From contig JAWLHY010000001.1 in the NCBI GenBank assembly GCA_041690135.1, positions 1,376,001 to 1,440,000 on the forward strand: a stretch of 64,000 bases of DNA, given 5' to 3'. The first letter of the stretch is position 1; each line of letters opens with the position of its first letter. Below the pieces are notes generated by a model, which had not been told where the DNA came from, made no database searches, and worked only from the letters and a program-made list of their open reading frames with translations. Shown here in pieces: positions 8,386 through 60,723 of this stretch. The DNA comes from Armatimonadota bacterium (GTDB taxonomy: Bacteria; Armatimonadota; SYMT01). Position numbers and translations under genes: made by a program.

Positions 8386-8679
8386 CAGCAAATCTCCTCG
8401 TAGCAACGCGGTTTCCCGCGTTGCCCGCGCCTCACGACCCCGGATCTACCCGCGGAAGTATCGTCCTCACACAGTACGGGAGCGCAGGCACTTAATTGAA
8501 TGATGAAGCTCTATGAACGGAGTTCGCCGAAGTGTGGGAGAGATCGACAATCTGGGAAAGCGCAGATCATTCGCTGCGACTGACCCAACGACCCGAACTT
8601 CGTACCCGATCGGTGGTTGAGTTGGACCCGTAATAGGCGGCGGTTAGCAGTCAGGAGTCCGCGGCACGTCTGCGTTGAT

Positions 8680-8990
8680 CTATACGGAGCCTTCACCCTG
8701 GCAGCGGCAGTGGAACTCCGGGTGCGTCGTAAAGCTGTGCGAACCCCACCCTTCCGGACATAGGCCGGACAGGTAAAGTGCTCGAACACCGTCTCCAGGT
8801 GGTGACGCGACTGCGGGTGGGCGCAAAGACCCCAGTCCGCATTGAACGGTGCGAAAAAGGAGCAGCCCCCGCACTGTGCGCCTTCTTCGTAGGCCGCCCG
8901 CACCTCCGGCTCATCCGGCCAGCGCCTCTCGTAGAGCCGGCTGGCATCCCCATTCGACCAGGTGTCGGTGATGATCTGATTCTTGTTCAT
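8680..8990 (-). CDS. Small Cys/His-rich putative metal-binding protein, probable frameshift near 8756
   Basis: CGGCSFF..WGLC..H..TVFEHFTC continues plausibly in another frame as EGWGSHSF..HCRC; start overlaps the DHH gene stop. Confidence 0.6.
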
Positions 8991-10078: not shown

Positions 10079-10269
10079 GCCGGTTCTCCACAGCCCTGCT
10101 AAGCGCGTATCCCGGCGATCCTGCGGGAGCCTCGCCGGGATACACAGCTATTTCCCGCCATGCAGACCATACACACCCAGCGGGCAGACCGGGCAAAGGG
10201 TTAGACAGGGTACGCGCCGGGAATGACGGATCAGGAACGAAGGATCGCCAGAGAGGAGTCGCTGATCCG

Positions 10270-11010: not shown

Positions 11011-11105
11011 CCGGGCGACGGCTTCACTTTGCTCTCAATATATCTCGCGGACTACGACGAACACCTGCCCAACCGAAGCGCCCTTCCCGCCTGGCCAGGC
11101 TACAT

Positions 11106-11231
11106 CGGGATGGGGATTGCGGTTTCGGTCTGGCCATCTGCCGGAGCATCGTAGAGGCGCATCGCGGGCAACTCCGGATCGAAAGTGAACTGGGACGCGG
11201 AACCACCGTGATGGTGGATTTGCCGGTTTAG
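11106..11231 (+). pseudogene. Remnant of histidine-kinase HATPase_c C-terminus
   Basis: Reads [41 protein letters not shown] (G2 box) with no intact upstream part. Confidence 0.7.
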
Positions 11232-11308
11232 GGAGTTGCCGCTTCCCTCCCGTTGTGCGAAACTTCGGGAGTAATCGTTCCGTTGATCCGTTCCAGGAAC
11301 CCGCCTTG

Positions 11309-12427
11309 ATGAAAGCCGTCGCCGTCCGACCCGGCACGCCGCATAGCGTGCACCTGCGTGAGCTGCCCGTTCCCGAGATCACCGACCAGCCCCACCCGCA
11401 CGTAACCCTCATCCCGGAAGGCCGCGCCGTACGAGTCAAGGTCCTGCAGGTCGGGGTCGACGCCACGGACCGCGAGATCAACGAGGCCCTCTACGGCAAC
11501 GCGCCTCCGGGTGGGGAGCACCTGGTGATCGGCCATGAGAGCTTCGGGCAGGTGGTGGAGGTTGGTGACCGCGTGACGGAGCTGCAGCCGGGCGACTACG
11601 TTTCCTGCACCGTGCGGCGTCCGGGAGGGTCGCTGCACGACCGGATCGGCCGCAACGACATCACCAGCGAGGAAGTCTACTACGAGCGCGGCATCAATCT
11701 CTGCCACGGCTTCCTCACCGAGTATTTCGTGGACGACGCTGAGTACGTAGTGAAGGTGCCGATAGGCCTGCGACACCTGGGCGTGCTGGCGGAGCCCGCC
11801 AGTGTCTGCGCCAAGGCGATCGAACAGGCGTTCCTCGCGCAGCAGCGTCTCCAGGTCTGGAACCCCCAGCGGGCATTCGTGCTGGGCGCGGGCCAGATCG
11901 GCTTGCTGGCCACGATGATGCTTCGCCTCCGGGGCCTGGAAGTCTACACCCTCGCCACCAGCCCGGCGCCCAACCTCAAGGCGGAAATCGCGCGGGCCTA
12001 CGGGGCCACCTACGTGAGCACGCGCGAAACCCCGCTCGCGGACCTGGCGCGCCAGGTAGGACGGCCGGACCTCATCTTCGAGGCGACGGGCAATGCCGAG
12101 TCGTGTTTCCGCGCGATGGAAGTCCTGGCGATCAATGGCGCCCTCATCTGGACCAGCGTTACGGGCGGGAGTCGCGAGGTATCCATCGACGCCGCGAAGA
12201 TCAACCTGGAGTGGGTGCTCGGCAACAAGCTGCTCGTCTCCAGCGTCAACGGCAACCGCCGGCACTTCGAGCTGGGCATCCAGGCGCTCTCCCACGGGGA
12301 GCTCACCTATCCCGGTGTTACGGGGCGGATCCTCACCCATCCTATTGCCGGATTGGAGAACTTTGGGGAGATGATGCGCCTGCTGGAAGACCGGTCCGCA
12401 CTGAAGGTCTTCTGCAACGTGGGATGA
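11309..12427 (+). CDS. Glucose 1-dehydrogenase-like zinc-dependent MDR dehydrogenase
   Basis: [37 protein letters not shown]. Confidence 0.85.
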
Positions 12428-38400: not shown

Positions 38401-39285
38401 ATGTCCGACCGCGAATATCAACGGCGAACCCCCGTTCCCGGCCCGGCCGGCAATCCGGGGGAAGAACTGCCCCCCACGGCCGACGCCTTCACCACGTTAG
38501 GCGACAACCTGGCCGCGCAGGGGCGCCTGGAAGAGGCGATCGACAACTACAAGCAGGCCCTCCGGCTCGAAGGGGACAACCCCGACCGTCATACCCGGCT
38601 GGGGGATGCCTACGTTTTTGCCGAGAACAGCAGTCAGGCGCTGTACCACTACCGCCGGGCGCTGAAGGCGAACCCCCAGCACGCGGACACCCACTTTTCG
38701 CTCGCGGAAGTCTATCGGCGGTTCGGGAAGCTGAAGGGCGCGATCACGCTGTACCGGAAGGCGATTGACCTCGAGCCGACCAACCCCTACTACCACTACC
38801 GGCTGGGCACGGCCTTCCACCAGGCGGGAAACGTGGATGCCGCCGTCCGGGAGCTCTCCGAAGCGATCCGCCTGGCCCCGCGAGACGGCTTCTATCACTT
38901 CTGGTTGGGAGACCTCTTCCTCCAACTTCAGCGCGTGAAGGAGGCTTTGGCCGAGTTGGAAGCGGCCGTCAAACACGCGCCATTCGACGACTACTATTGC
39001 GTGCGCCTCGGCATGGCGTATGCGGTAATGAGCCGAGAGGAAGACGCCGTGGCGATGTTCCAGCGGGCGATCCGCCTGCGGCCCGGCAATGCCTCCTACC
39101 ACTACCTGATGGCGGACTCTTTCGCCCGGATGGGCTATGCCCTGCGCGCCGCCATGCACTACGAGATCGCCGGTGACCTGGATCCCTACGACCGCGAGTA
39201 CGTAGACCGGATGCGCAACCGCTTCACGCAGGCGGGCGGCGGACTCCGCCCCGAGGACTTCGGCCTCTCACCGTTCGAGAGTTGA
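38401..39285 (+). CDS. TPR repeat protein
   Basis: About 7 regular 34-aa repeats (LG..Y...G....A...Y..A...P). Confidence 0.9.
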   Translation: MSDREYQRRTPVPGPAGNPGEELPPTADAFTTLGDNLAAQGRLEEAIDNYKQALRLEGDNPDRHTRLGDAYVFAENSSQALYHYRRALKANPQHADTHFSLAEVYRRFGKLKGAITLYRKAIDLEPTNPYYHYRLGTAFHQAGNVDAAVRELSEAIRLAPRDGFYHFWLGDLFLQLQRVKEALAELEAAVKHAPFDDYYCVRLGMAYAVMSREEDAVAMFQRAIRLRPGNASYHYLMADSFARMGYALRAAMHYEIAGDLDPYDREYVDRMRNRFTQAGGGLRPEDFGLSPFES

Positions 39286-39743: not shown

Positions 39744-41453
39744 TTACGGCGTGCTGCTCACCGAAGTCGCGGGCATCGGCTCCGTGTCGGGCATCTCCGG
39801 CATCATGGCGGGCTGGCTCATGTCGATGACCGGCTCCGAAGAGGTAATCGGCGCCAGGCTCTCGGTGGCCACCTGCGTCTCCGACTCTGAGGGAACGAAG
39901 TCCGGATCGCCGGGCACCAGCGATCGCTCCTCCGTACTCCGGACGATCCGGACTCTCGGCTCCGGCGCGCGGGCCGGGACGAAGGACTCTGCTATCCGGC
40001 GCACGTCCGCTTCCGGCATGTCCGCCGCCGAGAGGGTCAGCCGGGTGCCCCCCTGCTTCCAGGTGAGGAACACCTGGGGGTAGGGCTCCTTCAAGCGCAC
40101 CAGGCGTCCTTCGACGGTCCCTTGCGGCGTTTCCAAGTTGATCACCTGGCCGTTGGCCAGGTCGCCTGGTGGCTCGTTGGCCGCATCCTGCTGAACCAGC
40201 TTCAGCACCTGGCTGGCCTTCTCCCCTTCCCGCAGCCAGTGGATGTCCAGCCAAGCGCCGCGCCGCGCCCGCACCCGCATCAAGCGGTAGTCCGCGGGCA
40301 GCCATTCCGGAGCCAGCACTGGGAAAGAGACCCGATCCGACCGGTTCCAGGCCAGCTCGTGCGCCGTGGTAACGGGTTTCCGATCGAATTCCTCGGTCCG
40401 CTTCGGAACGTAAGGCAGGGCCAGCGTGTGGGGATCCACATCCCCGTGCACCACGAAGGCGCCATCCGGGATCTGGAAGTCGAACGTGCCGGCGGGCAAC
40501 ACGTCGTAATTCACCTGCAGGTCCGCGGCCTCGGTCACGATGTGGTTCTGTTCATCGCGGTACCAGTGGATCCGGCGCGGGATGTAGGTCTCCTTGTCGA
40601 TCCACACCTGGTACTGGTCCTGCCGGGTGCCTCCGGGAGGCGTGGCGGCGAACTTGAGCCGGTAGCACTCGCGTGGGCCGACCCACTCCGAGCCGGTCAT
40701 CTCCACGTCCGGGCTCTGGGTCAACTGCCGGACCATCTGCTCCAGGCTCACGTTCCCGCCGTTCTGCCAGGTAACGCCGAACGGGAACGGCAGCGCCTCT
40801 TGACCCTCTCGGCGCGGCCGGACGATGACCACCGGGCCCCGGTCGTTCCATCGTGCGCCAGGGATGTAGTGGATGACGCGGTCCTGGTAGACGTAGGTCT
40901 GCAGGCGGTAGTCCTTCGCCGTGTCCAGGCGAAACTCGCCCGGGCGCCGGAAGAACTGCCGCTGTTTGAAGGTGCGCGGCTGCCCCTGGTAGGTGCCGGT
41001 GCTTACGAAGACACAGCCGTAGTTGTGGATGTTGCGCCAGGAGACGCTGGCCCGCCGGGCCACTTCCGCGGCGTTGATACTCCGCGTGGAGGCGAAAGCA
41101 CAGAGCCCGACGGCCACCACGGCGGTGGTAAGACCGCTTGCCAGGCGCAGGCGCGGTGGTGCCGGCAGCAGCCGTGCCAGGAACTCCCCGAGGCGCGCCG
41201 GGGACAGCGGGTGCCGGCGGCGCTCACGGCGATGCCGGGCCAGACGCACCTGCAGGCTGGCGCTGAAGTGAGCCGGCACGTCCTCCAACTCTTCTTCGTG
41301 GAGCATGCCGACCACGGCCTGCATCCGGGCATATTCCGCGCGGCAGCCGGAGCATTCTTCCAGATGCGCGAGGACCTTGCGGCTCTCGCGGGACTCGAGC
41401 TCTCCGTCGAGGAGGGCGCGGATCCGGGATTCGACAAAGTTACAGCCAGTCAT
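39744..41453 (-). CDS. Anti-sigma factor: zf-HC2 + TM + LolA/RseB-like extracytoplasmic domain
   Basis: HLEECSGC (HxxxCxxC); TM; VWIDKETY.P.R..WY and FDFQIP.GA. Confidence 0.82.
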   Translation of the reverse strand: MTGCNFVESRIRALLDGELESRESRKVLAHLEECSGCRAEYARMQAVVGMLHEEELEDVPAHFSASLQVRLARHRRERRRHPLSPARLGEFLARLLPAPPRLRLASGLTTAVVAVGLCAFASTRSINAAEVARRASVSWRNIHNYGCVFVSTGTYQGQPRTFKQRQFFRRPGEFRLDTAKDYRLQTYVYQDRVIHYIPGARWNDRGPVVIVRPRREGQEALPFPFGVTWQNGGNVSLEQMVRQLTQSPDVEMTGSEWVGPRECYRLKFAATPPGGTRQDQYQVWIDKETYIPRRIHWYRDEQNHIVTEAADLQVNYDVLPAGTFDFQIPDGAFVVHGDVDPHTLALPYVPKRTEEFDRKPVTTAHELAWNRSDRVSFPVLAPEWLPADYRLMRVRARRGAWLDIHWLREGEKASQVLKLVQQDAANEPPGDLANGQVINLETPQGTVEGRLVRLKEPYPQVFLTWKQGGTRLTLSAADMPEADVRRIAESFVPARAPEPRVRIVRSTEERSLVPGDPDFVPSESETQVATESLAPITSSEPVIDMSQPAMMPEMPDTEPMPATSVSSTP

Positions 41454-41455
41454 TC

Positions 41456-41998
41456 TCACGATCCGACCTCCACGTAGGGCCGCAGTACCGTCGCCAGGCG
41501 CTGGGTGGCATAATGCAGGCGGCTGCGCACCGTACCGATCGGACACCCCACGATCTGGGCGATCTCTTCGTAGCTCAACCCGTGCAGGTCGCGCAATACC
41601 ACGACGAGCCGCAGCTTGTAGGGAAGCTGCTCGATCGCGGAGCGGACCCGTTCCTGCAGTTCGCCGGAAATGGCGAGGTGCTCCGGGTTATGACCCTGAT
41701 ACTGATCAGGCTCCTGCTCGTCCAGGTCGGTGGTGTCCAGCCGGCGCTTGCGCAGGTGATGCGAGCAAACGTGGACGGCGATCCGGTAGATCCAGGTGCT
41801 GAAGGTGGAGTCGCCGCGGAAGTTCGGCAGCGCCTTGTAGGCCGCAATAAACACATCTTGCGCCAGGTCGTCCGCTTCCGCGGGTGATACCAGCCGGCAG
41901 ACCAGGCTGTACACGCGCTTCCGGTGCCGTTCGACCAGAGCGTCGAAGGCATCCTCATCTCCGCGCTGGAACTGAGCTACGAGCCGATGATCATCCAT
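41456..41998 (-). CDS. ECF RNA polymerase sigma factor (RpoE/SigW-like)
   Basis: DLAQDVF, FSTWIYRIA, GLSYEEIA..VGCPIGTVRSRL. Confidence 0.95.
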   Translation of the reverse strand: MDDHRLVAQFQRGDEDAFDALVERHRKRVYSLVCRLVSPAEADDLAQDVFIAAYKALPNFRGDSTFSTWIYRIAVHVCSHHLRKRRLDTTDLDEQEPDQYQGHNPEHLAISGELQERVRSAIEQLPYKLRLVVVLRDLHGLSYEEIAQIVGCPIGTVRSRLHYATQRLATVLRPYVEVGS

Positions 41999-43808: not shown

Positions 43809-43864
43809 TCACGCATCACGTATTACGCATCACGTAATATGCATCACGAATTACGCGTCACGCT
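43809..43864. repeat. Heptamer tandem array T(C/T)ACG(C/T)A x8 (degenerate)
   Basis: tcacgca tcacgta ttacgca tcacgta atatgca tcacgaa ttacgcg tcacgct; reverse complement of the moaA array unit. Confidence 0.8.
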
Positions 43865-43880
43865 CCCCCTTACAACCGCC

Positions 43881-47576
<3,696 letters not shown>

Positions 47577-49003: not shown

Positions 49004-50311
49004 ATGAGCAATGATAGGGATGCGCGTTTGCACCTGGTCTGCATTTCCGGACCGGACCAGGGCAAGCGGATCGCCCTGGGCGATCAGGAGACGGTCATCG
49101 GCAGTGCCTCGGACGCGGGGCTCCTCAGCGGCGATCCGGATGTCGCGGAACGGCACGCGGGCGTTTGCCTGTTGAACGGTGTGGTGCACTACCGTTCACT
49201 GGCCGGCACTCCCCTTTTCCAGGACGGGGTCGGCCGGTCGGACGGAACCCTCGGGCCGGGCGCGCAGCTTCGGATTGGGCGCTCTTTCTGGCAGATGCAG
49301 GCGCCGGGCCGGGTGGTGGGATCTCCGGCCGGAGGGCTCTTCGACGCGGTGGGCCGGCACGTCCGCAGCATCACCGGCACCGAGGAGTTGGAAGGCTTCA
49401 GCGTCGAGGAGTTTTTCTCGGACGTCTCCAAGCGCCGGACGGATGAGGACATCGAGGAGTTCTTCATCGTCGGCACCCGCCTGACGACACCTTCGCTCCG
49501 GGACGTGAACACCAAGTGGCCCAAGCCCTGGCTGTTCTTCAAGGCGTTGACGCTCTCGCTGCTGATCTATCTCGGCTTCGCGTTCGCGTTCAACACCTTC
49601 CACAACCCGAACCTGATCCCCGGCCTGATCATGATGGGTTCGTTCGCGGTGCCGCTCAGCGTGGTGTTCTTCTTCTTCGAGATGAACGTGCTGCGAAACA
49701 TTTCCGTGTACCACGTCTTCAAGTCGCTGCTGGCGGGAGGCGTGCTCTCCCTGATCACCTCGCTTTACGGGTTCCAGATCCTGCAGTTGAGCTGGCTGGG
49801 AGCCTCTTCGGCCGGAATCATCGAGGAGACCGGTAAGCTGCTGGCCCTGCTGATCCTGTACCGCCAGACGGAGCGGCGCTGGACCTTGAACGGCCTGCTA
49901 CTCGGTGGGGCCGTGGGCGCCGGGTTCGCGGTGTTCGAATCGGCCGGTTATGCGCTGCGGATCCTGATCCTCGGCGGGCCCGAGGCGATGTTCGACAATA
50001 TCTGGATCCGGGGGCTCCTCTCGCCGGGAGCGCACGTGGCATGGACCGCTCTCGTCGGTGCGGCCTTGTGGCGCGTGCGGGGCAACCAGCCGACCACGGG
50101 GGTGGTCCTCCAGGACCTCCGCTTCCTGCGGGTCTTCGGCCTGGCGATCGGTCTGCACATGATTTGGAATGCGCCCATCGACCTGCCGTTCTACGCCAAG
50201 CACATCGCTCTGACGGTGATCGCCTGGATGGGCATTCTCGGGTTCGTCCAGGAGGGCCTGAAGCAGGTCCGCGCGGAGCAGGCCGAACTCTCGCCGGTTT
50301 CCGGGAACTGA
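49004..50311 (+). CDS. PrsW-family intramembrane metalloprotease with N-terminal FHA-like domain
   Basis: ISGPDQG..IG...VAERHA; IEETGK, FAVFES, HVAW, HMIWN; AAGGAG RBS. Confidence 0.88.
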   Translation: MSNDRDARLHLVCISGPDQGKRIALGDQETVIGSASDAGLLSGDPDVAERHAGVCLLNGVVHYRSLAGTPLFQDGVGRSDGTLGPGAQLRIGRSFWQMQAPGRVVGSPAGGLFDAVGRHVRSITGTEELEGFSVEEFFSDVSKRRTDEDIEEFFIVGTRLTTPSLRDVNTKWPKPWLFFKALTLSLLIYLGFAFAFNTFHNPNLIPGLIMMGSFAVPLSVVFFFFEMNVLRNISVYHVFKSLLAGGVLSLITSLYGFQILQLSWLGASSAGIIEETGKLLALLILYRQTERRWTLNGLLLGGAVGAGFAVFESAGYALRILILGGPEAMFDNIWIRGLLSPGAHVAWTALVGAALWRVRGNQPTTGVVLQDLRFLRVFGLAIGLHMIWNAPIDLPFYAKHIALTVIAWMGILGFVQEGLKQVRAEQAELSPVSGN

Positions 50312-50410
50312 TTCGCGCGCTGCTGATCTCGAAGTGGGGAGCCTCCTGTTCCGGCGTGAGAGGGTGCGGGAGTTTGAGGACTGTGCTCGAGACGTCGTGA
50401 GCGAGGAGTT

Positions 50411-50450
50411 CCCCTCTCCCGCAGCGTGGGAGAGGGGCAGGGGTGAGGGT
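50411..50450. repeat. REP-like palindrome CCCCTCTCCC..GGGAGAGGGG-CAGGGGTGAGGG
   Basis: 10-bp stem read directly; a second hairpin GTGGGGTCCCA..TGGGACCCCAC lies at about 50489-50528. Confidence 0.6.
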
Positions 50451-50622
50451 ACTCCTGGTATGAGTGGTGCAAGTGGGCTACTTGCCTGGTGGGGTCCCAT
50501 GCCCACTTGCCGGGCGTTGGGACCCCACTCCACACGGCACGACGGGTGCAAAGCCACAGCCCGGCGGGTACGGAGACTCCGCCCTACTTCTGCGGGTGCA
50601 AGTACTGAGGCCATACCATTCC

Positions 50623-51639
50623 TCAGTCGCCTTGGTGGGACAGGATGTGCCGGCACAGGCCCAGCAGCCGGTGGGTGTAGCCCATCTCATTGTCATACCA
50701 GGCTACTACCCGCGCCAGGTTGCCCCGCACCTCCAGGCTCGGTTCCACCACGATGCTGGCTCGCGGATCTCCGACGAATGCCCGCGACGGCAGGTGAGCG
50801 TCCGTCGTCAGTCCGTAGGCCTCCTCGCGGCCCGCGGCGTAGGTCCGTAGCGCGGCGCGGAGTTCCTCGCGCGAGATGCTCTGCTCTAATTGGAAATGCG
50901 CTTCGAGTAGGGAGCCGGTCAACGTAGGCACGCGGGCGGCCTGGCCGGTGATCTTCCCCTCCAGGTCCGGGAAGATCATGGCGATCGCCTTCGCGGCTCC
51001 CGTCTCGGAGATGATGATGTTCTGGAAAGCGCTCCACGAGTCCGGCAGATCCTCCGCGGGGGCATCCACCAGTCGCTGGCTGTTGGTGACCGCATGGATC
51101 GCCACGAAGAAGCCGGCGGCGATTCGCATTCCCGCCTCGCGCAGCGCCATCACGGGATGCACCAGGCAGTTGGTGGTGCAGGAGGCGGCGGAGAGAATGC
51201 GGTGACGCCGGGGATCGAAGTCCGTGTGGTTCACGTGGTGCAGGAGTACCGCGTCCGCATCCTCGCGCGTCTTCGGCGGCATTGTCACCAGCACCTGGCG
51301 CGCCCCCAACTGCAGGTGCGCTTCGGCGGGCTCTCGTCGGCTGGCTCGCCCGGTGGCCTCGACCACCAGTGTGGCGCCGATCTCCTCGTAGTTCGCCTCC
51401 TCGGGGCGGAAGAACGGCACCCGTAAGCCCTCCCCCAGGTCGAAGGCGCCATCCACATAACGCACCGGCCGGAGCGAGCGTCCGTAGCTGGTATCGAACT
51501 CCGTTAGGGCGGCCAGCTTTCGCGGGTCGGCGGTGTCCACTACCCCCGCCAGACGAAACTGCCGCGGATTTCGCTGCCACTCTCGCAGGAACACTCGCCC
51601 GATCCGGCCCGCTCCCACCAATACCACTCCTGGTTGCAT
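50623..51639 (-). CDS. Divergent type I glyceraldehyde-3-phosphate/erythrose-4-phosphate dehydrogenase family protein
   Basis: GAGRIGR, EATG, SAASCTTNCL, TGAAKAI, RVPT, AWYDNEMGY; GGAGG RBS. Confidence 0.9.
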   Translation of the reverse strand: MQPGVVLVGAGRIGRVFLREWQRNPRQFRLAGVVDTADPRKLAALTEFDTSYGRSLRPVRYVDGAFDLGEGLRVPFFRPEEANYEEIGATLVVEATGRASRREPAEAHLQLGARQVLVTMPPKTREDADAVLLHHVNHTDFDPRRHRILSAASCTTNCLVHPVMALREAGMRIAAGFFVAIHAVTNSQRLVDAPAEDLPDSWSAFQNIIISETGAAKAIAMIFPDLEGKITGQAARVPTLTGSLLEAHFQLEQSISREELRAALRTYAAGREEAYGLTTDAHLPSRAFVGDPRASIVVEPSLEVRGNLARVVAWYDNEMGYTHRLLGLCRHILSHQGD

Positions 51640-51826
51640 TCGTTACCTCCGTGGATCTACTCCGGGAACCGCCTTTCCATCGTCCTCGATGGGCGCGGCT
51701 CCCTACCTCAGCGTATCGAGGCGCGAGAGGCGTGATCCACGCCGAAGACGACTTTCGTACGGTGCAGCGGTACAATTAACGGCAATGCAATACGCATCGT
51801 GGGTTAAATGGGGACAGAAAGCTGAC

Positions 51827-52261
51827 ATGACGGAAACACGACGTGGGAAGAATGGTATAAGCAACAATCTTCGGCGCGAGCGAGAGGCCCGCCGGCTGTC
51901 CCTGGAGCAGTTGGCGCGGAAAGCGGGGATCCGCCGGGGATCGCTCTGGCAGATGGAAAATGGGGAGATCGGCCCCAGCCTGGAGACGGCGCTGCGCTTG
52001 AGCCGCGCGCTACGCGTGCCGGTCGAGCACCTGTTCTGGTTGGAAGGTGAAGACGAAGAGGCCGAAACCCGCACGGCCCGGCCGGAGCCCGACGTGATGG
52101 TCCGCGCCGTGCTCGGGGCGCTTGCGGAGAGCCTGCAGGATGAACTGTTTGTACGCCAAACCCTGTTCCGGCTGCGGCGGAGTCTGCTGGTGGAGGCGCA
52201 GCGGGTGCTGGAAGAAGAGGAACGGCAGGCGCGGGAGGCCTACGCCAAGAGTTTCATTTAA
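51827..52261 (+). CDS. XRE-family HTH transcriptional regulator
   Basis: LRRER...LS.EQLA..AGI....L..MENG...PSL.TA.RL...L.V.VE.LF. Confidence 0.88.
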   Translation: MTETRRGKNGISNNLRREREARRLSLEQLARKAGIRRGSLWQMENGEIGPSLETALRLSRALRVPVEHLFWLEGEDEEAETRTARPEPDVMVRAVLGALAESLQDELFVRQTLFRLRRSLLVEAQRVLEEEERQAREAYAKSFI

Positions 52262-52344
52262 TCGGCAGTGGGTGAAGGATTGCCTACAGTGCCGTGTGGA
52301 AGTTATCCGTGTTGGTGATGCCCTCCAGGAAAGGAGACGCTCCG

Positions 52345-52707
52345 ATGTTAGTTCCTCTGCTTCTTACGGCGCTTAAGGGAAATCTGAAGTCGGTGGTTAG
52401 CGGCACCCTGAGTGACCTGGGGCAACGGGGTGTGGACGAGAAGATGACCGCCGCCATTCCGGTAATCGTGGCGGAGATGGAGTCGGACGGCGCCACGCCG
52501 GCCGACCTGGAACTCCGGCAGGTGGTCCGAGGCGCCATGTTCCGCTTGTGGAAGGTGGTGGTCAACAATGGCCACGCGGCCGATGCCTTCCGGGACGCGC
52601 AGGACGACAAGGTGGTCGCCGCGGTCCTGGTAGCGATCAACCGTGAGACACCGCTTGCCGAGATCGTAACGAAGACCAAGGACGAGATCATCTCCCTGAC
52701 CTTCTGA
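52345..52707 (+). CDS. Hypothetical helical protein (120 aa)
   Basis: AAGGAG RBS before ATG 52345; followed by a hairpin. Confidence 0.7.
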   Translation: MLVPLLLTALKGNLKSVVSGTLSDLGQRGVDEKMTAAIPVIVAEMESDGATPADLELRQVVRGAMFRLWKVVVNNGHAADAFRDAQDDKVVAAVLVAINRETPLAEIVTKTKDEIISLTF

Positions 52708-52737
52708 GGTCCGCGAGAGGGTCGGAAATAGCGCGGC

Positions 52738-52769
52738 AGCCCGCAGCCAGAACGTCCCGGCTGCGGGCT
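52738..52769 (+). terminator. Putative terminator hairpin
   Basis: AGCCCGCAGCC-N10-GGCTGCGGGCT, weak T tail. Confidence 0.5.
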
Positions 52770-52874
52770 ATGTCCGTTTAGGTAGCGTTCCGCGGCGGCC
52801 ATTCCACCGGGGCTTTGTCGGAATGCGGTACAATTCTTGTGTCGCGATCTCGCACCCGCGGTAGGATCACGCCC

Positions 52875-54065
52875 ATGCCGTCCGCAGCCTCCCATCCAGA
52901 CCTGCGCCAAAATCATGCATGCCCGCGTTCTATCCGAACGCCGGCCCGGTTGCTCGGGCCGGTGGCGGTGCTGCTCGCTATGGCCTTGCCTGGGGCGGCC
53001 GACCCGATCCCCTCTTACGTCAAGCTCCCCGAAGACGTGCGCGCGGAGGTACGGGCCCTGGATCAGGCTCGGGGACGAGCGACAGGGCCGCTCACCGCAG
53101 CCCAACTCCGGCGCTTCGCGGGGTCACTGCCTCGGCCCCCCACGCAAAAGGGACAACTCTACTTCGCGGTCGCCTCCGCGGACCTGTCGCTCTTTGACGC
53201 GTTGGCGGGCGGTTCCCGATCCGAGGGCGCGCAAGACCCGGAGACCGGGATGACAGCCCTGATGATCGCGGCGGAGATCGGCCAGTGGGACGCGGCCACC
53301 CGGCTGGTGCGGCTCGTGCGGGGCGACGACGGCGAGTTTGTGTTCCGCTGTGAATACGGGGACGCCTACTACAAGCACCGTTGCGATCGATACGGCTACA
53401 CCGCGCTGATGCACGCGGCTTCCGCCGGGCAGACGGAAATCGTCAACTATCTCCTCAACGCCGGGGCGCCGCCGGACAAGCGGTGCTACGTGGCCCGCTT
53501 CGATGCCCTGCAACTCGCGCAGAATAACCGGCACGATCTCGCCGCGGCCGCCCTCCAGCGCCGGTTGTCCGAACAGGAGGCGCGGCGCCGTGAGGAGCAG
53601 CGCCTTCAGGAAGAGCAGGACCACCAGTTTCTCCATTCCGGCTGGTGGCGTGACATGCTGATGAACAATGGAGACCTGTTCGCCTCCCTGCTGGTGACGG
53701 CGCTCCTCTCGCTGGGCGGTTTCCTGTTCGTGCACGTCACGGTCCGGGGGATGATCGGTCGCGACCGCCGTGAATTATTGGTGGGGCTGCTCACGCGCGC
53801 GTTCGTCGAAGAGGCCGAGCGCGATCCTGGAGCCACGCGCTGGACCTATACCGAGGTCGAGCGCCTGGTGCGCACTTTTGTGGGCGAGCTGCGGTGGCGT
53901 CGTGACTTCATGACGCGCTGGCACCCCGCCCACTGGCCCCCCTCGTTCGATCAGGTGGTTGGAATTGCCCGGGACTATCAGTCGGAAACCGCGGAGTATG
54001 TGTGGAAGACCCTCCGCCCCACCGGTGCGGTTTCGGCGGGCTCCCCTTCAGGGAGTTCCAAATGA
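52875..54065 (+). CDS. Ankyrin-repeat protein with signal-like segment, coiled coil, single TM and C-terminal domain
   Basis: GMTALMIAA..G and GYTALMHAASAGQ.EIV.YLL.AGA; TM LFASLLVTALLSLGGFLFVHVTV; start uncertain. Confidence 0.8.
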   Translation: MPSAASHPDLRQNHACPRSIRTPARLLGPVAVLLAMALPGAADPIPSYVKLPEDVRAEVRALDQARGRATGPLTAAQLRRFAGSLPRPPTQKGQLYFAVASADLSLFDALAGGSRSEGAQDPETGMTALMIAAEIGQWDAATRLVRLVRGDDGEFVFRCEYGDAYYKHRCDRYGYTALMHAASAGQTEIVNYLLNAGAPPDKRCYVARFDALQLAQNNRHDLAAAALQRRLSEQEARRREEQRLQEEQDHQFLHSGWWRDMLMNNGDLFASLLVTALLSLGGFLFVHVTVRGMIGRDRRELLVGLLTRAFVEEAERDPGATRWTYTEVERLVRTFVGELRWRRDFMTRWHPAHWPPSFDQVVGIARDYQSETAEYVWKTLRPTGAVSAGSPSGSSK

Positions 54066-57007
54066 CCCTGGAGGGTACGAGCACGGGGGGAGACGCACTT
54101 TATGTGCGTGGCTGGTGGGGTCGGACCGTCGAGTACCTTGCCGGGCTGTTCGGCGCTTCCGGGGAAACGGAAGCTTCCCCAGCAGAGGGCGCCGCCGTGG
54201 CGGGAATCGTCCCGGCTGGCACGGCGAAATCGCCGCCTCTCGTGGCCAGCCTCGCCTGGGAACGTGAAGGCCCGCCTCTCTTCGGGCACGATTGGCCCCC
54301 CACCCCCGCCACTTACCAGGCGCCTCAAGGCGAGCGTGCCGCCGCGGCCACCCTCCTCCGGCAGGTCCTGGCGGATGCGACCCAGCCGGTGGTGTGCCTC
54401 CATGGACTTACGGGCATCGGCAAGTCCACGCTGGTCGTGGAAACACTGGAAGACGGTGAGCAGCTCTTCGGCCAGGAGTTCTGCGTTTGGATCAACTGCG
54501 AGCAATACCGCGGCCGGGAGCGGAAGGCGCTGGGAACATTCGTCAGCCAGTACCTGCTGGAGGCGATGCCGGGTCTTCAGCCTGCCGGTAGGACCGGAGC
54601 AGAAGCCGCCGATGTTCTTCCGCTGGAAACGGCGGCCCGCTGTCCCGCCCTGCTGGTGATGGACAACTTCGAGGCGATGCTCGATGCGCAGGACTGTTAC
54701 CAGGGCGACCCCTGGGTCTGGGACCTCCTGCGCCTGCGCACCCGCCAGGCCGCCCGGCGTGGGGGCCCGGGTCTCAAGGTTCTCCTCATCAGTTGGCGCG
54801 CGCCGCGGGACATGGATGCGCAGGGCAACGCGGTGGTGCGTCCCCTGGCGCTGGATGAGGGCCTGAGTGACGCGCAAATGCACGACCTCCTGGATGCGGT
54901 CTGGGCGGGCACGATCCAGGGTAAAGCATTGCGGCGGGCCAGCGGCGAGCAGAAGGCGGAGCTGGTACGCCTCTGTGGCGGCAACCCGGCGGCGCTCAAT
55001 GCAGCTTTGACGGCGCTCCGGTTGCAGGAGGGGATCCGCTCGCTGGAAGATCTGCTGGCGCTACCTTTTCTTCAACTCGTAACAGATAACCAGGGACGGG
55101 AGATCAACCTGCGCCGGTACGTCCGCGAGGTCATGCGCCAGGCACGCCAGAACCCGGAGCGGAGGGCCGTTTTGTACGCCCTGGCCCTCCTGCGTCTCCC
55201 TACCCCCGCGGATGATGCCGAGGACGGTGTGCCGAGCCTGGCCAACCGGGTTCACGCACTGGATGGTCGTGTGGAAGCGGCTGCCGATGATGGACCGGCG
55301 GTAGGCGAAGGGGGAGAGCGCGAGCCGGTTACGGGTGAGAATCGAAAGCGAAGAGCGTTGACGCCTCGCCAGGTGAGACAGCACCTGGAGCGCCTGGCGC
55401 CCGGTTTCGTGCGGGTTCACGACAGCGAGGGAGCGGGGCCGATCACCTACAGCCTGAGTCCCCTTTTCGCCAGTGCCGTCTACGAAGAGCTGCGCGAGGA
55501 ATCGGCTCCCGTCCTGGCGCGGCTGATGGAGGCCACGGCCCAGCACTATCAATCGCTGCTGGAAAACCTTCCCGACGCGCTGCGGCCTGAAGAAACGGGC
55601 GAGCCCGCCGGACCCTCGTCGATGGGCGCGCGCTATCGCCTGGAGACACCCGAATACCGCAAGTACATCGCGGAGTGGCTCCGGGCCATGTTGGGCAATC
55701 CCGAACGGGACCCACAGGAGAACCGCGCCAGCCTCGCGGCGGTCGTGCTGAAATTGCACTGGTGGTGGGCGACGTTCGTGCCGTGGGAAGTGTTCGACCA
55801 CGTGCTATCTACCATCGAGCTCGGTCTGCGCCTGGCCGGGCATCTGCAGACCGACGCGGACTTCGGCGAAGAGCGTCGCTTGGTGGAGAAGTTGCGGGAG
55901 TTCGATGTGCACTGGCCAAAGGAAAGCCGCTGGACGGTTGACCCCGATCCGGTGGAATGTCGCCGGGCGCGGGAAGCGCTCCTGGCGGTGCGTCGTGTTC
56001 TTGACTGTGATTATCCCGTCAACGAAGAAGGTGTCTCCCGCCCCACTCTTACCGGCGATCTGCGGGCGGTGGCGGCGATCACGGATATGTATCTGGGCGA
56101 TCTGTGGCTGTTCGAGTTTCGGTTCGGATCTCGGCAGGCAGCCGTGGTGGACCAGGCGGCCCTCTGGATGCAGAGTGCCCGCCGCCGTTACGCGGGGTCG
56201 GCGCACGACGCTGCCGAGAAGGTCCAGGATGAAGACCTCAGTTGGTCCGAGATCTACGTGATTGCCAGCCAGGGCTACCTGGAATGGGAGCGTGGTGACC
56301 GGCTCGCAGCGCTTCGGTTTGCGCGGGAAGGACTGGAGCGCTGCCTGGCAGCGGACCGCTCCGCGCAGGATGAGGCGGATGATGCGGATGCGGATGACGG
56401 CGGGTACGAGGAGCGGGATGCCCGGGCGAAGGTTTATGTAACGTTGGGTGAGGGCCTTCTGAAAGAAAATCCTCAGCTTGCGTTGGACTGTTTTCGGTTG
56501 GCCCACTGGGAAGCGTTCGCCTATCTGTGGGATCCGCCCACGGATCCGCCGAACGACGACTACACGCTGACGCATTACCGGATCACCTGCGAGCGATTCA
56601 TCCATGCACTGCGATGCGTATTTGCGGAAAGCGAAAGGCCCGAGATGGCGCTCGCGGTGGCACGCCAGACACGCGAGTTCTGGCTGGAATGGAGCCGCGG
56701 TGACTGCCATCCCTGCCCAGCTCCGAGGTTGGATCGGGAAGGGGAAGTGTGGGAGAATCTCCTCCGGGAGTGGTCTCCGCAAGAGCGAGGGTGGCTCACG
56801 CCGGATATCACTCCATCTGACCGCGCCCGTGCGCTGACGCAACAGTACCAGGCATGCGCGGCGGCATTATTTCCTGAACTACCGAACGCAGAGGATCGTG
56901 CGTACCGGGACGCGGCGCGGGCCTTTACCCGGACTCATTTTGCGGAACCGTTTCGGCTCCGAGATAAACTCCTGGATTACGTCCGTTGTCAGTTGGCCGA
57001 AGAATAG
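54062..57007 (+). CDS. STAND (NB-ARC-like) P-loop NTPase with helical/TPR-like C-terminus
   Basis: Walker A GLTGIGKS, Walker B LLVMDNFE, sensor KVLLISWR, GxP motif LCGGNPAAL; ATGA overlap with the ankyrin gene. Confidence 0.85.
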   Translation: MTLEGTSTGGDALYVRGWWGRTVEYLAGLFGASGETEASPAEGAAVAGIVPAGTAKSPPLVASLAWEREGPPLFGHDWPPTPATYQAPQGERAAAATLLRQVLADATQPVVCLHGLTGIGKSTLVVETLEDGEQLFGQEFCVWINCEQYRGRERKALGTFVSQYLLEAMPGLQPAGRTGAEAADVLPLETAARCPALLVMDNFEAMLDAQDCYQGDPWVWDLLRLRTRQAARRGGPGLKVLLISWRAPRDMDAQGNAVVRPLALDEGLSDAQMHDLLDAVWAGTIQGKALRRASGEQKAELVRLCGGNPAALNAALTALRLQEGIRSLEDLLALPFLQLVTDNQGREINLRRYVREVMRQARQNPERRAVLYALALLRLPTPADDAEDGVPSLANRVHALDGRVEAAADDGPAVGEGGEREPVTGENRKRRALTPRQVRQHLERLAPGFVRVHDSEGAGPITYSLSPLFASAVYEELREESAPVLARLMEATAQHYQSLLENLPDALRPEETGEPAGPSSMGARYRLETPEYRKYIAEWLRAMLGNPERDPQENRASLAAVVLKLHWWWATFVPWEVFDHVLSTIELGLRLAGHLQTDADFGEERRLVEKLREFDVHWPKESRWTVDPDPVECRRAREALLAVRRVLDCDYPVNEEGVSRPTLTGDLRAVAAITDMYLGDLWLFEFRFGSRQAAVVDQAALWMQSARRRYAGSAHDAAEKVQDEDLSWSEIYVIASQGYLEWERGDRLAALRFAREGLERCLAADRSAQDEADDADADDGGYEERDARAKVYVTLGEGLLKENPQLALDCFRLAHWEAFAYLWDPPTDPPNDDYTLTHYRITCERFIHALRCVFAESERPEMALAVARQTREFWLEWSRGDCHPCPAPRLDREGEVWENLLREWSPQERGWLTPDITPSDRARALTQQYQACAAALFPELPNAEDRAYRDAARAFTRTHFAEPFRLRDKLLDYVRCQLAEE

Positions 57008-57015
57008 GTGGGAGC

Positions 57016-57759
57016 GTGCTGGAACTTCACGAGATTGAGGGCGTCCTGGATTCGGAGCTGGTGCCGTTTGCCCGACTCATCCAAACGCTCTTCCCGCCCG
57101 AGGAGCAGGTTCTCTTCTCGGAGGTGATCGAGCTGGCGCAGGCGAAATCTCGCGGCGAAGCGAAGGAACACCACTTTCTTACAGCGCGGGATCCCGAGAG
57201 TCGTGAAACAGTCGCCATGGCCTGGTACTGGTTGACTTCCCCTGATCCGGGATCGGATCGGGGTGAGGATCCCACGGATGGAAAGGAGAAGCTGTCGTCT
57301 CCCGGCGTGCCGGACCTGCGTGTGGCGTGGCTGTGGTACATTGCGGTCGATCCCCGGCACCAGTCGCAAGGATGCGGAGGGTGGCTCTACCGCGAAATCT
57401 GCCGCCGAGTCTTCCATGAGCACGGCTGCGGGTTGATGGTCCTGGAAGTCGAGCGGGTCGATGTAGCCGCCCGCCACTCGGAAGCACGGGCGGCGGACGC
57501 GAGACGTCGCCTCCGGTTTTACCAGGACCGGTGCGGAGCGCAGCGATTGGAAGGCATCGAATACATCCAGGAGACGGGTTGGCAACCCGGACTGCCGATG
57601 CACCTGCTGATCCAGTGGCCCGATCCTGCCCGCCCAGGATTATCCGCGGAAGCGTCGTTCCATCTCCTTAAGGGACTGTTCGGAGATCAACTGCGAGGCG
57701 TGGAAGGCGTCTCTCCGTGGCTGGCTGGATCAACAGCGGCTGGATCGACAGTGGAGTAG
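57016..57759 (+). CDS. GNAT family N-acetyltransferase
   Basis: FPPEE, LWYIAVDP.HQSQG.G (motif A), MVLEVE, RRLRFY; starts 8 nt after the STAND stop. Confidence 0.88.
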   Translation: MLELHEIEGVLDSELVPFARLIQTLFPPEEQVLFSEVIELAQAKSRGEAKEHHFLTARDPESRETVAMAWYWLTSPDPGSDRGEDPTDGKEKLSSPGVPDLRVAWLWYIAVDPRHQSQGCGGWLYREICRRVFHEHGCGLMVLEVERVDVAARHSEARAADARRRLRFYQDRCGAQRLEGIEYIQETGWQPGLPMHLLIQWPDPARPGLSAEASFHLLKGLFGDQLRGVEGVSPWLAGSTAAGSTVE

Positions 57760-58460
57760 CTTCCGGGCGGCGGAGGCGGAGGAGCGGCGATCGGACGCGG
57801 CGGAGGCTGGTTCTTCAGCAGGTGATCTACCGTGCGAGAAACGGTGGCGAATTGCGCCGGCCCCACGTTCACGAAGCTCCGATGGACTCTATGATCCTGG
57901 ATGATCAGAACCGTGCTGTCCACCATCGGGTTCAGCGACAACCAGGGCGGCACCGAAGTTGGTTGAAGGTAAAGCAGCGGAATTCTGGTGTGACGCTCGT
58001 CTGCCACCTTCTTGATGTGGCCGACGAGTTCGGTCCCGCCCATAAAGGCGACGCATCCTTCCAGCTTTTCACCTCGCGCCTGGTAGCGGGCCACGAGCGC
58101 ATCGATGTGCGCAGCCAGCCTGGCCGCATGCTCCAGTTCCGGTTTCACGAAGGCGGCGATTACCGGTCCGGAGCGCCAGTCTCACGTGTAGCAGTGTGTT
58201 TTCCCGCGATAGGGCCCCGTAACATCCACCATGGGGCTCGGCCCGATCCCCCATCCTACCGTGGGGCCTGAACGACCGGAGAGGAAATAGGCCCACCTGG
58301 CAACCGGCCGAAAATAGCCCTGCTGACCCAGGATGCCGATCCAGGCACTTGCCGCCAGTCCCACGAGAACTCCGGCCAATCGCTTGCGCCGCATACGCTT
58401 TCTTCTTCCTGCCTTCTTGCGGGCGGAGCGGTCCCGGAAACCTTTCCGGCGCCACGGCAT
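57687..58460 (-). CDS. Putative membrane-anchored thioredoxin-like selenoprotein (CxxU), 257 aa, Sec at codon 93 (TGA 58182-58184)
   Basis: Track ORFs 58182-58460 and 57687-58148 share a frame and are separated only by TGA: DVTGPYRGKTHCYT-U-DWRSGPVIAAFVKP; AAGGAGG before ATG 58460; hairpin directly 3' of the TGA. Confidence 0.78.
58130..58174 (-). promoter_or_regulatory. Candidate bacterial SECIS element
   Basis: GCUCCGG-A-CCGGU-AA-UCGC[CGCCUUC]GUGA-AA-ACCGG-AA-CUGGAGC; stem starts 7 nt after UGA, apical loop 26 nt after UGA with G at loop position 2. Confidence 0.62.
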
Positions 58461-58765
58461 TCGGCCTCCTTAGTCAGGCACTTAGACGATGTGCCTAGGG
58501 TGTCGTTAATCCGCTCTCTCCTCCAGCCGTTGGTCGCATGCGGCTTTTGGGCTCCGCCCGGCTGGAAGCGCGGGCGCACCACGATGCCGTGCCGCCCGCC
58601 GGCTAGTCACCCCTTCGGACCTACTGGGGGAAGAGATTCGGTCACAGGCCCTCATCGGTCAGGTCCGGGTGCTCGCGGGTCCGTTGAAAACGTAGAACAA
58701 GAGGGGCGCTTCCGGTCGGATAACGGCGGTCCCGATGGTGTGCGGATCGAATAACAGGTGGGCGT

Positions 58766-59482
58766 GTGGTGCAGGCAGGGAACACAGGGGCGGAAGTATC
58801 GCCCATCATCGAAGTGCGCGATCTGAAGGTGAAGCTCGCCCACGGCACCGCAGCCTCCTGGGTCCTGGATATCCCCCACTGGAATGTGCATCCCGGCGAG
58901 CAGGCGGCTCTATTTGGCCGGTCGGGTTGCGGGAAGTCGACTCTCCTCCACGTGCTCTCCGGGGTTCTGATGCCCACCTCCGGCAGCGTCCGGGTCTGCG
59001 GCACGGACCTGACCACGCTCGACGAGGCGAAACGGGATGCTTTTCGCGCGCACAAGATCGGCTATGTCTTCCAGAACCTGAACCTGCTCCCCGGTTACAC
59101 GGCTCTGGAGAACGTGCTCCTGGGTGCGTCCTTCTCCGGTCGCGTGGATCGGGCGAAGGCGGTAAGCCTGCTCAAAGCGATGGATCTTGCCGATCGCCTG
59201 AATCAGCCGCCGAACGCGCTTTCCCTGGGAGAACAACAGCGGGTGGCCGTCGCCCGCGCCCTGGTCAAGGAGCCGGAACTGGTGCTGGCGGACGAGCCGA
59301 CCGCATCGCTCGACCCCCGGAACTCCGCGCGGGTGATCGACCTGTTGCAGGCTGCATGCCGTGGCTGCGGCAGTACCCTGGTGCTGGTGACCCACGAACC
59401 GGAGGTGCTGACGCGTTTCGAGCGACAAGTGCCGTTCCGGGATCTGAACCGTCCGGGCGAAGAAGTGGAGCGCCGGCGGTGA
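58766..59482 (+). CDS. ABC transporter ATP-binding protein (LolD/MacB type)
   Basis: GRSGCGKS, IGYVFQ, LSLGEQQRVAVARA, LADEPT, VTH. Confidence 0.93.
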   Translation: MVQAGNTGAEVSPIIEVRDLKVKLAHGTAASWVLDIPHWNVHPGEQAALFGRSGCGKSTLLHVLSGVLMPTSGSVRVCGTDLTTLDEAKRDAFRAHKIGYVFQNLNLLPGYTALENVLLGASFSGRVDRAKAVSLLKAMDLADRLNQPPNALSLGEQQRVAVARALVKEPELVLADEPTASLDPRNSARVIDLLQAACRGCGSTLVLVTHEPEVLTRFERQVPFRDLNRPGEEVERRR

Positions 59483-60723
59483 GTTTCTTGCAGATCCTGC
59501 TGCGCAGTCTCCGGCGGCATCGCCTCTCCGGCGCGCTCGCCCTGCTCAGCACCGCGCTCGGGGTGGCCCTGATTGTGGCGGTCGTCTCCTTCCGCGAACA
59601 GTCGCACCGGCAGTTCGAAACGGAGGGCATGGGCGTCGACGCGATCCTTGCCCCCCGGGGATCGGCGCTGCAGGTGGTGCTCAACAGCCTCTACCACCTG
59701 GATGAAATGCCGGGAACGCTTCCGTGGCGCGAGTACGAGCGCGTCCGGCAGGACGAGTTGGTGGTGGAAGCCTTCCCTTTTGCCACCGGGCACTCCTATT
59801 CCGGATTCCGTGTGAACGCGGTCGAGCCGCGGTTTTTTGCCCGGTTCGAGCACCGTCCCGGGCGGGGCCTTTCGTTCGCGCCCGAAGACGGCGGGCAAGG
59901 CCGTCCGTTCGACGCACGGGGAGAGGCGGTAGCCGGCTGGGCCGCGGCGCGGACGCTAGGTCTGACCGTGGGCCAGACCTTCCATCCCGTGCACGGGGTC
60001 CGCGCGGGAGATCCGCCCCATGCGGAGGACGCGCTGCGCATCGTCGGCATTATGGCGCCCACCGGCACCCCGCACGACCGGGTCCTGTATATCCCGCTGG
60101 CGTCGTTCTACACTCTGGGCGGACACGGTGAGACGGTGGCGCGTATGGCGGATCATCCGGGTGAGCGGGAGATCAGCGGCGTCTACTTGCGCCTTCGGCA
60201 CATCCGGGGCGGCGCCCTACACCCAGGAATCCAGCAGTTAAAATATGAGGTGAACCGCCGCCCCGCGGTCCAACTGGTGGTGCCGAACGAGGTCCTGCCC
60301 CAACTGCTGGATATCATTGGTTGGGCTGACCGGGTCCTCTTCCTGCTGGGAACACTGGTAATTGGACTGGGCGGAGCGTTTCTGTTCGTGGTACTGGTGA
60401 CCGCGCTACGGGAACAACGCCGCGACCTGGCGCTGCTGCGGATGCTCGGAGCGGGTCGAAAAACGGTGTTCGGATTGATCCTGGCCCAGGCTCTACTCCT
60501 CAGCCTGGGCAGCGCTATACTGGGCCTTGCGGCGGGGCATGCCGTGATAGCTTGGGGTAGCCAGGCGGTGGCCCAGGAAACCGGGCTGCGGTTTTCGGAG
60601 GGGTTCCTTTCGACAGCCGATGTCTGGACTATTCCGGCGATGCTGGTGCTGGGCGCGGTGGCCGGTTTGTTTCCGGCAGTCCAGGCCTACCGGATGGACG
60701 TACTAGAAGGGCTGCGAGCATAG
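59479..60723 (+). CDS. ABC transporter permease (MacB/FtsX type)
   Basis: GS.LQ.VL.SLYH, His-rich HPVHG...H, GTPHDR, RDLALLR.LGA; GTGA overlap. Confidence 0.88.
   Translation: MSFLQILLRSLRRHRLSGALALLSTALGVALIVAVVSFREQSHRQFETEGMGVDAILAPRGSALQVVLNSLYHLDEMPGTLPWREYERVRQDELVVEAFPFATGHSYSGFRVNAVEPRFFARFEHRPGRGLSFAPEDGGQGRPFDARGEAVAGWAAARTLGLTVGQTFHPVHGVRAGDPPHAEDALRIVGIMAPTGTPHDRVLYIPLASFYTLGGHGETVARMADHPGEREISGVYLRLRHIRGGALHPGIQQLKYEVNRRPAVQLVVPNEVLPQLLDIIGWADRVLFLLGTLVIGLGGAFLFVVLVTALREQRRDLALLRMLGAGRKTVFGLILAQALLLSLGSAILGLAAGHAVIAWGSQAVAQETGLRFSEGFLSTADVWTIPAMLVLGAVAGLFPAVQAYRMDVLEGLRA

Follow-up and report, generated by a model that had tools for sequence, protein, structure and literature searches.

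Does a STAND (signal transduction ATPase with numerous domains) NTPase that carries no effector of its own belong with the membrane ankyrin protein and the GNAT (GCN5-related N-acetyltransferase) encoded on either side of it? This question is raised by positions 52875–57759 of a 64,000-nucleotide (nt) stretch of DNA from an Armatimonadota bacterium (contig JAWLHY010000001.1, positions 1,376,001 to 1,440,000; hereafter the window), where an initial annotation, made from the letters alone, had proposed a candidate system resembling nucleotide-binding leucine-rich repeat receptors (NLR-like). Most of the known bacterial STAND and NLR-like proteins combine a fused effector and a cytoplasmic sensor in one polypeptide. 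We find the three genes, with their order kept, in further, distantly related soil bacteria of the phylum, and the cassette is a real, conserved and apparently undescribed STAND set with a candidate role in signalling or defence.

A conserved three-gene cassette

The order ankyrin protein, STAND, GNAT was read directly in three genomes: the source genome of the window (G000; 9.1 Mb in 25 contigs, 97% complete), G248 and G388. Co-occurrence of the homologues elsewhere, on which the initial annotation had staked its proposal beforehand, was therefore found twice. In G248, which belongs to another family of the same phylum, contig C46 carries an ankyrin protein (38% identity), the STAND P0012 (35%) and a GNAT (50%) on one strand and in the same order, joined by a GTGA and then an ATGA overlap of 4 nt each. 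The G388 locus encodes an ankyrin protein with a signal-like segment, an Ank_2 match, a transmembrane (TM) segment and a tail, followed through an ATGA overlap by an effector-less STAND, with the GNAT approximately 130 nt downstream. A 4-nt overlap forms the ankyrin/STAND junction in all three loci read. Furthermore, two metagenome contigs probably carry the whole set, judging by equal contig sizes across the three proteins: P0029, P0010 and P0006 (ankyrin protein, STAND and GNAT, respectively) share a size of 19647 bp, and P0030, P0011 and P0008 share one of 20777 bp.

Identity to the window's proteins falls in parallel across the three families (ankyrin/STAND/GNAT: 75/67/69%, 43/43/51% and 38/35/50%). 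As the families recur together with parallel identity ranks, their linkage goes beyond chance, and we regard the set as a conserved unit that is predicted to be translationally coupled. The parts of the cassette, all on the forward strand, are as follows.

52875–54065 (+): gene 1, membrane ankyrin protein, 396 amino acids (aa), from the open reading frame (ORF) call, Pfam and hydropathy
53670–53759 (+): TM helix of gene 1, residues 266–295, from hydropathy and alignment
54062–57007 (+): gene 2, STAND NTPase without a fused effector, 981 aa, from motifs, model and Foldseek
54311–55501 (+): nucleotide-binding, helical and winged-helix (NBD-HD-WHD) module of gene 2, residues ~84–480, from the AlphaFold2 model, Foldseek and VIA
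55505–57004 (+): TPR-like helical C-terminal domain of gene 2, residues ~482–981, from motifs, model and profile
57016–57759 (+): gene 3, GNAT acetyltransferase, 247 aa, from Pfam, model and homologue starts

Three ORFs in one direction occupy the whole of 52875–57759, and the tight coupling described in the initial annotation, an ATGA overlap and an 8-nt gap, is seen in the sequence. Gene 1 starts at an ATG with AGGA ahead of it; the ATG of gene 2 at 54062 overlaps the gene 1 TGA (54063–54065) and has AGGGAG upstream. The TAG stop of gene 2 (57005–57007) is followed after 8 nt by the GTG start of gene 3 at 57016, which agrees exactly with the start of three homologues (M-L-x-L-H-E-I). A promoter and terminator scan gave nothing useful for delimiting the operon, Rfam had zero matches in 50000–60000, and among nucleotide sequencing runs no RNA run was listed for the cassette and one soil-metagenome DNA run contained 0.06 of its words.

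An ORF at 57717–58271 (184 aa) was considered as a fourth gene and rejected, it overlaps the end of the GNAT gene, is Arg-rich and non-coding-like and has no Pfam match. The approximately 1 kb between the GNAT gene and the following ABC-transporter operon (57760–58765) contains no convincing ORF; those listed are Arg/Pro-rich and non-coding-like.

The STAND NTPase

The motifs named in the initial annotation were placed at residues 115–122 (Walker A, GLTGIGKS), 197–204 (Walker B, LLVMDNFE) and 306–309 (GGNP) of the 981-aa product of gene 2, with YRLETPEY at 525–532 and HWWW at 566–569; Walker A and Walker B align in all relatives covering the region. No TM segment was found by hydropathy. An AlphaFold2 model built from 13 sequences (predicted local distance difference test (pLDDT) 73, predicted template modelling score 0.63) has residues ~84–480 as an alpha/beta NTPase with helical and winged-helix parts behind it, and 482–981 as entirely helical. 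The absence of an effector head, also part of that annotation, was borne out: residues 1–83 have no Pfam match and a pLDDT below 50.

Comparison of the model with the PDB by Foldseek gave as best match 6mfv, a STAND with TPR (E 4e-8), and further matches to CED-4, Apaf-1, Avs3, the NRC1 NB-ARC and MalT (E 4e-8 to 5e-5 with 6mfv included), and to SAMD9. With VIA-align, gene 2 matched NRC2 at Z 14.9 (root-mean-square deviation 5.8, 317 residues aligned over 80–593) and MalT at Z 13.8. The C-terminal half (485–928) matched the TPR proteins Rap, PlcR and NprR at Z 12–13, a range that can be generic for helical repeats, and an Atlas feature search returned TPR clusters at 0.92–0.93. A PDB sequence search with the STAND profile gave nothing meaningful (best E 0.031). 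In Pfam, no cut-off was reached by gene 2, be it for NB-ARC (PF00931, 19.0 vs 23.5), NACHT (PF05729, 16.1 vs 26.7), nSTAND6 (16.1 vs 27.7) or AAA_16. The modelled fold and the motifs thus identify gene 2 as a STAND NTPase, which by score is not a member of Pfam NB-ARC or NACHT; the label "NB-ARC-like" of the initial annotation is too specific, although the fold is that of a STAND.

Relatives of gene 2 are rare. Across 1.84 billion representatives, scanned exhaustively with phmmer, 12 proteins reached E ≤ 0.001 and only three E ≤ 1e-30, namely P0010 (67% identity), P0011 (43%, 931 aa) and P0012 (about 35–37%, 917 aa). A word-index search returned gene 2 itself only, and among 60 related genomes there was no match (1/61 genomes, its own).

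The C-terminal domain carries the motifs YRxExxEY, EWL, HWWW, REFxxxxP, PxDxYT and LFPxxP, and this YRxE...HWWW domain is a previously unmodelled sensor domain. A profile of it (A6, seven sequences) was run on 401 sampled genomes of the phylum, and the matched loci were then scanned with hidden Markov models (HMMs) of the three families and Pfam. Matches occurred in six of the 401 genomes. A GNAT of the gene 3 family adjoins every effector-less STAND detected in this way (n = 5; G000, G248, G388, G189 and G002), and a membrane protein lies directly upstream of the STAND in all four loci with a readable upstream side, an ankyrin-TM protein in G000, G248 and G388 and one of another type, taken as a 2-TM protein, in G189. 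The G189 locus (L065, contig C72) has the order membrane protein, effector-less STAND and, after 11 nt, GNAT. The cassette is accessory: G255, a 91% complete genome from the genus of G248, shows no match to the profile.

The protein that holds the ankyrin-gene position in G189 (10126–10848, −) is 241 aa long, with at least one strong hydrophobic segment, no ankyrin repeats and no match in Pfam or in the defence catalogue PADLOC (version 2.0, threshold E ≤ 0.1).

Distant metagenomic homologues bear N-terminal heads, namely TIR (P0013, P0014, P0015 and P0021) and PNP_UDP_1 (P0019), with a faint HEPN match in P0016, and they match gene 2 column by column in the C-terminal motifs. In G323 (L067, C993), positions 7778–12364 encode an adenylate/guanylate cyclase, an NB-ARC and the HWWW C-terminal domain in one protein, which is a signalling-type relative of the gene 2 STAND. 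The contig ends within this gene, and a leucine-rich repeat protein is encoded divergently beside it. In this locus, the one read among the TIR-, PNP- and cyclase-fused proteins just named, no GNAT was seen, the downstream side being cut. As the C-terminal domain is common to TIR-, PNP- and cyclase-fused STANDs, and gene 2 is headless, an output supplied in trans fits the cassette.

The genome G248 also encodes a 911-aa TIR-STAND-TPR protein (L068, C218, 8192–10927, −) with a weak match to the C-terminal profile. It lies between Omp85/POTRA and sulfatase genes and matches PADLOC TIR models, and no GNAT or ankyrin gene was present in the 12.6 kb read. It is a candidate for a classical single-gene NLR-like system in the same genome as a cassette.

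The membrane ankyrin protein

Gene 1 is an ankyrin repeat protein by Pfam score (Ank, 42.4 bits vs a cut-off of 21.1), with Ank_2 at residues 95–202 (E 5.5e-12, 46.5 bits vs 27.3). Kyte-Doolittle hydropathy marks two hydrophobic segments, a signal-like one at 24–45 and the TM helix at 266–295, preceded by the charged stretch RRLSEQEARRREEQRLQEEQ. The tail at 306–396 is Arg-rich with 5 Trp in 91 aa, so that the signal-like segment, the ankyrin repeats, the one TM helix and the Trp-rich tail of the initial annotation were recovered. Homologues are P0029 (75%), P0030 (43%), P0022 in G248 (38%, 284 aa) and the G388 ORF; among the 60 related genomes only matches at the level of Ank repeats were found, in four genomes at E about 2e-4.

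In G000, G248 and G388 the N-terminus has an Arg-bearing n-region together with a hydrophobic core and, ahead of D/Q, small residues. The family alignment of four members shows C159, C170 and C204 of the ankyrin domain to be invariant, and an Arg-rich juxtamembrane helix after the TM segment (R..LL.GLLTRAF.EEA in gene 1) aligns in 4/4. Because of the signal-like N-terminus, the three invariant Cys and the Arg-rich sequence after the TM helix, these features place the ankyrin domain, as a topology prediction, outside the cytoplasm and the tail (296–396) inside, in agreement with the extracytoplasmic domain envisaged at the outset.

The GNAT

The assignment of gene 3 as a GNAT held in Pfam (Acetyltransf_1, 31.1 bits vs a cut-off of 20.7) and in its model (pLDDT 87), which matched at least 500 GNAT chains at E ≤ 0.001 in Foldseek. 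GNAT motif A has the consensus Q/RxxGxG/A. In gene 3 it reads QSQGCG (116–121), and G119 and G121 are invariant in the family alignment, as are E144, E146 and Y169. With fold and cofactor motifs kept, gene 3 is predicted to be a catalytically intact GNAT. Its structural neighbours are generic GNATs, many of them protein N-terminal acetyltransferases (Naa60, Ard1, NatD, Naa30 and RimI), and a GNAT described as a "bacterial toxin" (7byy) ranks 39 in the Foldseek list. NCBIfam added to the cassette only repeat-level or weak rimI matches. Between gene 2 and gene 3 there is no small antitoxin-like gene, and none convincingly overlaps the end of the GNAT gene.

Three close relatives of gene 3 were found (69, 52 and 51% identity), and a search of metagenome and genome contig collections with the GNAT alignment gave only ~30% identical GNATs, at 3 and 8 loci. 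A maximum likelihood tree was built from 26 GNATs, with fragment L004 (62 residues) and seven duplicate loci excluded. It groups the five cassette GNATs in one clade with 100/100 support, and the remaining STAND-linked GNATs are scattered in an unresolved base.

A second kind of STAND-GNAT pair is found at L009, where an ORF that resembles a STAND (2–4721, +; 1360 aa or more), with a P-loop (461–577) and TPR, overlaps the start of a GNAT of the gene 3 family. At L005 the contig begins inside a TPR ORF that ends at the GNAT start. Neither ORF matches the C-terminal-domain HMM.

Genomic context

The cassette is preceded in the window by MetH, FHA-PrsW, GAPDH and HTH_3 genes and followed by an ABC/MacB operon, DUF3299 and SurA. 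In G248 the flanks are GH35, DedA/VTT, an FAD oxidoreductase and GH52, with nothing in common with the window, and in G388 they are FlhB, which lies upstream, and a cyclase-like gene. The set moves as a unit, since the flanks differ in every genome. Flanks in each genome read are of housekeeping type, neither mobile elements nor further defence genes are in view, and GC content is unremarkable. Same-family synteny extends to the ABC-MacB-DUF3299-SurA block in G003 and the FHA-PrsW gene in G001, and to nothing else; these genomes are too divergent for an insertion to be read from it.

Immediately upstream, 51533–52707 (+) holds the gene of an HTH_3 protein of the XRE type and, after it, a 137-aa ORF without a family. 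As listed, the HTH_3 ORF begins so early that it overlaps the 5' end of GAPDH, and its real start probably lies further in. Both ORFs were considered as cassette parts and rejected, they are not kept with the cassette in G248 or G388. The FHA-PrsW gene (49004–50311, +) fuses an FHA-like domain (Yop-YscD_cpl, sub-threshold) to a PrsW-family intramembrane protease and is 66% conserved in G001, of the same family. Further upstream, the context is ordinary and housekeeping or regulatory, with MetH at 43839–47576, a zf-HC2 (anti-sigma-like) protein with a LolA-like domain at 39744–41546 (−) and a TPR/BTAD-like protein at 38401–39285 (+).

What the cassette may do

The reading we prefer, with a probability of roughly 0.45, is that of a self-contained three-gene NLR-like STAND switch, in which the GNAT is the output in trans and the membrane protein is an anchor or input. 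The gene 1 product would be exported by Sec and held by a one-TM anchor, with its Cys-bearing ankyrin domain facing the periplasm and a short helix and tail facing the cytoplasm. The gene 2 product would be the cytoplasmic switch, with ~85 disordered residues where relatives have a TIR, PNP or cyclase head, and the membrane ankyrin protein would either anchor it or pass an envelope signal to it. Nucleotide-dependent activation and oligomerisation of the STAND could then recruit or release the GNAT, and acetylation, probably of a protein amino group, would be the output that replaces a fused effector. What we infer here is which proteins touch, in which direction the signal runs, what the GNAT acetylates and whether the role lies in defence or in envelope signalling. 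A complex prediction for STAND residues 1–480 and the ankyrin protein tail (296–396) with the GNAT as partner scored 0.00 (mark 0.32), was run without controls and is evidence neither way.

Several observations weigh against this proposal. The longer W/R-rich tail of the ankyrin protein is found in three of the four family members and is absent (short) in G248, and for P0010, one of the STANDs assigned to a metagenomic cassette, the record on the 19647-bp contig holds no more than a C-terminal piece of 536 aa. In G002, of the window's own family, the order is reversed: the two genes share a strand, with the GNAT first and the STAND at least 310 nt away, and the contig ends 300 nt past the GNAT. 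The GNAT family is also wider than the cassette, as the full-length GNAT HMM matches at many loci in Armatimonadota and Chloroflexota records. There was no STAND beside the GNAT at ten loci with readable neighbours (L002, L006, L007, L008, L010, L012, L069, L070, L071 and L074), where neighbours include a sigma-70/zf-HC2 protein, GH97, CBM30 and a GDSL-like protein; this count leaves out L011 and L073 (ambiguous) and several loci cut by contig ends. On the 26-GNAT tree the STAND-linked label is unclustered (7 changes vs a shuffled mean of 7.6). Lastly, residues 286–370 of the L009 ORF show a weak match to PDC-M60C (E 5.9e-6), which is also the model hit by the PNP part of P0019. A GNAT in place of a fused head is hence not a strict rule, as the L009 STAND has this weak PNP-type effector match of its own.

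A role in anti-phage defence or abortive infection is possible if somewhat unlikely. Here the STAND would sense an invader and the GNAT would be a toxic effector that halts growth, for example by acetylating a translation component, and the ankyrin protein may sense envelope attack. Relatives with the same sensor carry TIR and PNP heads matching PADLOC models (ThsB-like TIR and a PN-superfamily effector), the distribution is patchy (six of 401 genomes, with no profile match in the congener G255), the context of the cassette differs in each genome, and GNAT domains are predicted as effectors in other immune systems in a recent preprint (bioRxiv 10.64898/2026.10.19.760177). However, PADLOC is negative for the cassette STAND, the GNAT and the tested relatives, the sole STAND match being the weak one in the divergent L009, and neither the housekeeping flanks, free of mobile-element or defence genes in view, nor the GC content favours a defence locus. 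A GNAT family that stands alone at ten loci runs contrary to a constitutive toxin, and the cyclase-fused relative suits signalling equally well.

A more far-reaching form of our proposal, which we consider unlikely, is an outside-in NLR-type immune or surveillance system, in which a periplasmic ankyrin receptor relays what happens at the envelope through the membrane to the effector-less STAND, and the STAND turns on a separate acetyltransferase as executioner or signal. If this were true, both the trans-acting GNAT output and the extracytoplasmic input would be new for prokaryotic STAND systems.

The wiring could also be the inverse, which we hold to be quite improbable: STAND oligomers would cluster the membrane ankyrin protein and so perturb the membrane, and the GNAT would have a regulatory part, its acetylation of the STAND or the tail keeping the switch in its state or resetting it. 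The 4-nt ankyrin/STAND overlap in 3/3 loci read suits this arrangement, as does the other type of membrane protein in the same position in G189, such replacement being seen with variable effectors. A GNAT beside the L009 STAND with its possible fused PNP-like part likewise suits a regulator, and many of the structural neighbours of the GNAT are protein N-terminal acetyltransferases, although these neighbours are generic for the fold. A large, conserved, Cys-bearing periplasmic ankyrin domain, however, exceeds the needs of a pore-former, and the protein has one TM segment only.

It is highly improbable that the GNAT is an ordinary lineage-specific acetyltransferase that chances to follow STAND genes, as its often STAND-free family and the scattered linkage label might suggest, given that order, strand and start/stop overlaps are kept across genomes at 35–50% identity, that the identity ranks of the three families run parallel where flanks are not conserved, and that the GNAT is linked to at least two different STAND families.

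Under the reading of a three-gene switch with its output in trans, the cassette is a testable case of an NLR-like switch signalling through a separate enzyme, and of a possible coupling between such a switch and events outside the cytoplasm. The YRxE...HWWW domain, with its TIR, PNP and cyclase heads, provides a handle for finding more members.

Comparison with known systems

The initial annotation knew of no described system of this composition and had named PADLOC as a check. Zero families matched gene 2 or gene 3 at the threshold given above, the Avs models included in the case of gene 2, so that no known-system match was found in the switch. Among STAND relatives, P0012 had no match and P0011 only a marginal one to PDC-S01 (E 0.0097, with no stretch passing alone), and the STANDs and GNATs of G388, G189 and G002 had none. 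The ankyrin proteins match PDC-M72A and the generic "Ankyrin" model over the repeats only. In the literature no description of an ankyrin/STAND/GNAT set was found, and a listing in supplementary tables of comparative-genomics papers is still possible. Beside the GNAT effectors predicted elsewhere (cited above), Kaur et al. 2021 (PMC8195603) describe STAND switches and ankyrin sensors in general terms.

Toxins of the TacT/AtaT type, which belong to toxin-antitoxin pairs, have the GNAT fold in common with gene 3. They differ in that no convincing small antitoxin gene was seen beside gene 3, which has generic GNATs and N-terminal acetyltransferases as top neighbours. The best structural matches of gene 2, 6mfv and MalT, are like it effector-poor switches with TPR-like sensors, but MalT has a DNA-binding output, whereas gene 2 is without a helix-turn-helix and has membrane and GNAT partners. 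Avs proteins (Avs3, PDB 8dgc; Foldseek E 2e-6) resemble gene 2 in an NBD-HD-WHD core followed by a helical-repeat C-terminal domain, and differ from it in being single polypeptides with a fused N-terminal effector, gene 2 being headless and accompanied by two extra conserved genes. The fused STANDs (P0013–P0016, P0019, P0021 and G323:C993) each have an N-terminal head of their own where gene 2 has none, and share with it the motifs LLVxDNFE, YRxE, FWWW, REFxxxYP, PxDxYT and LFP.

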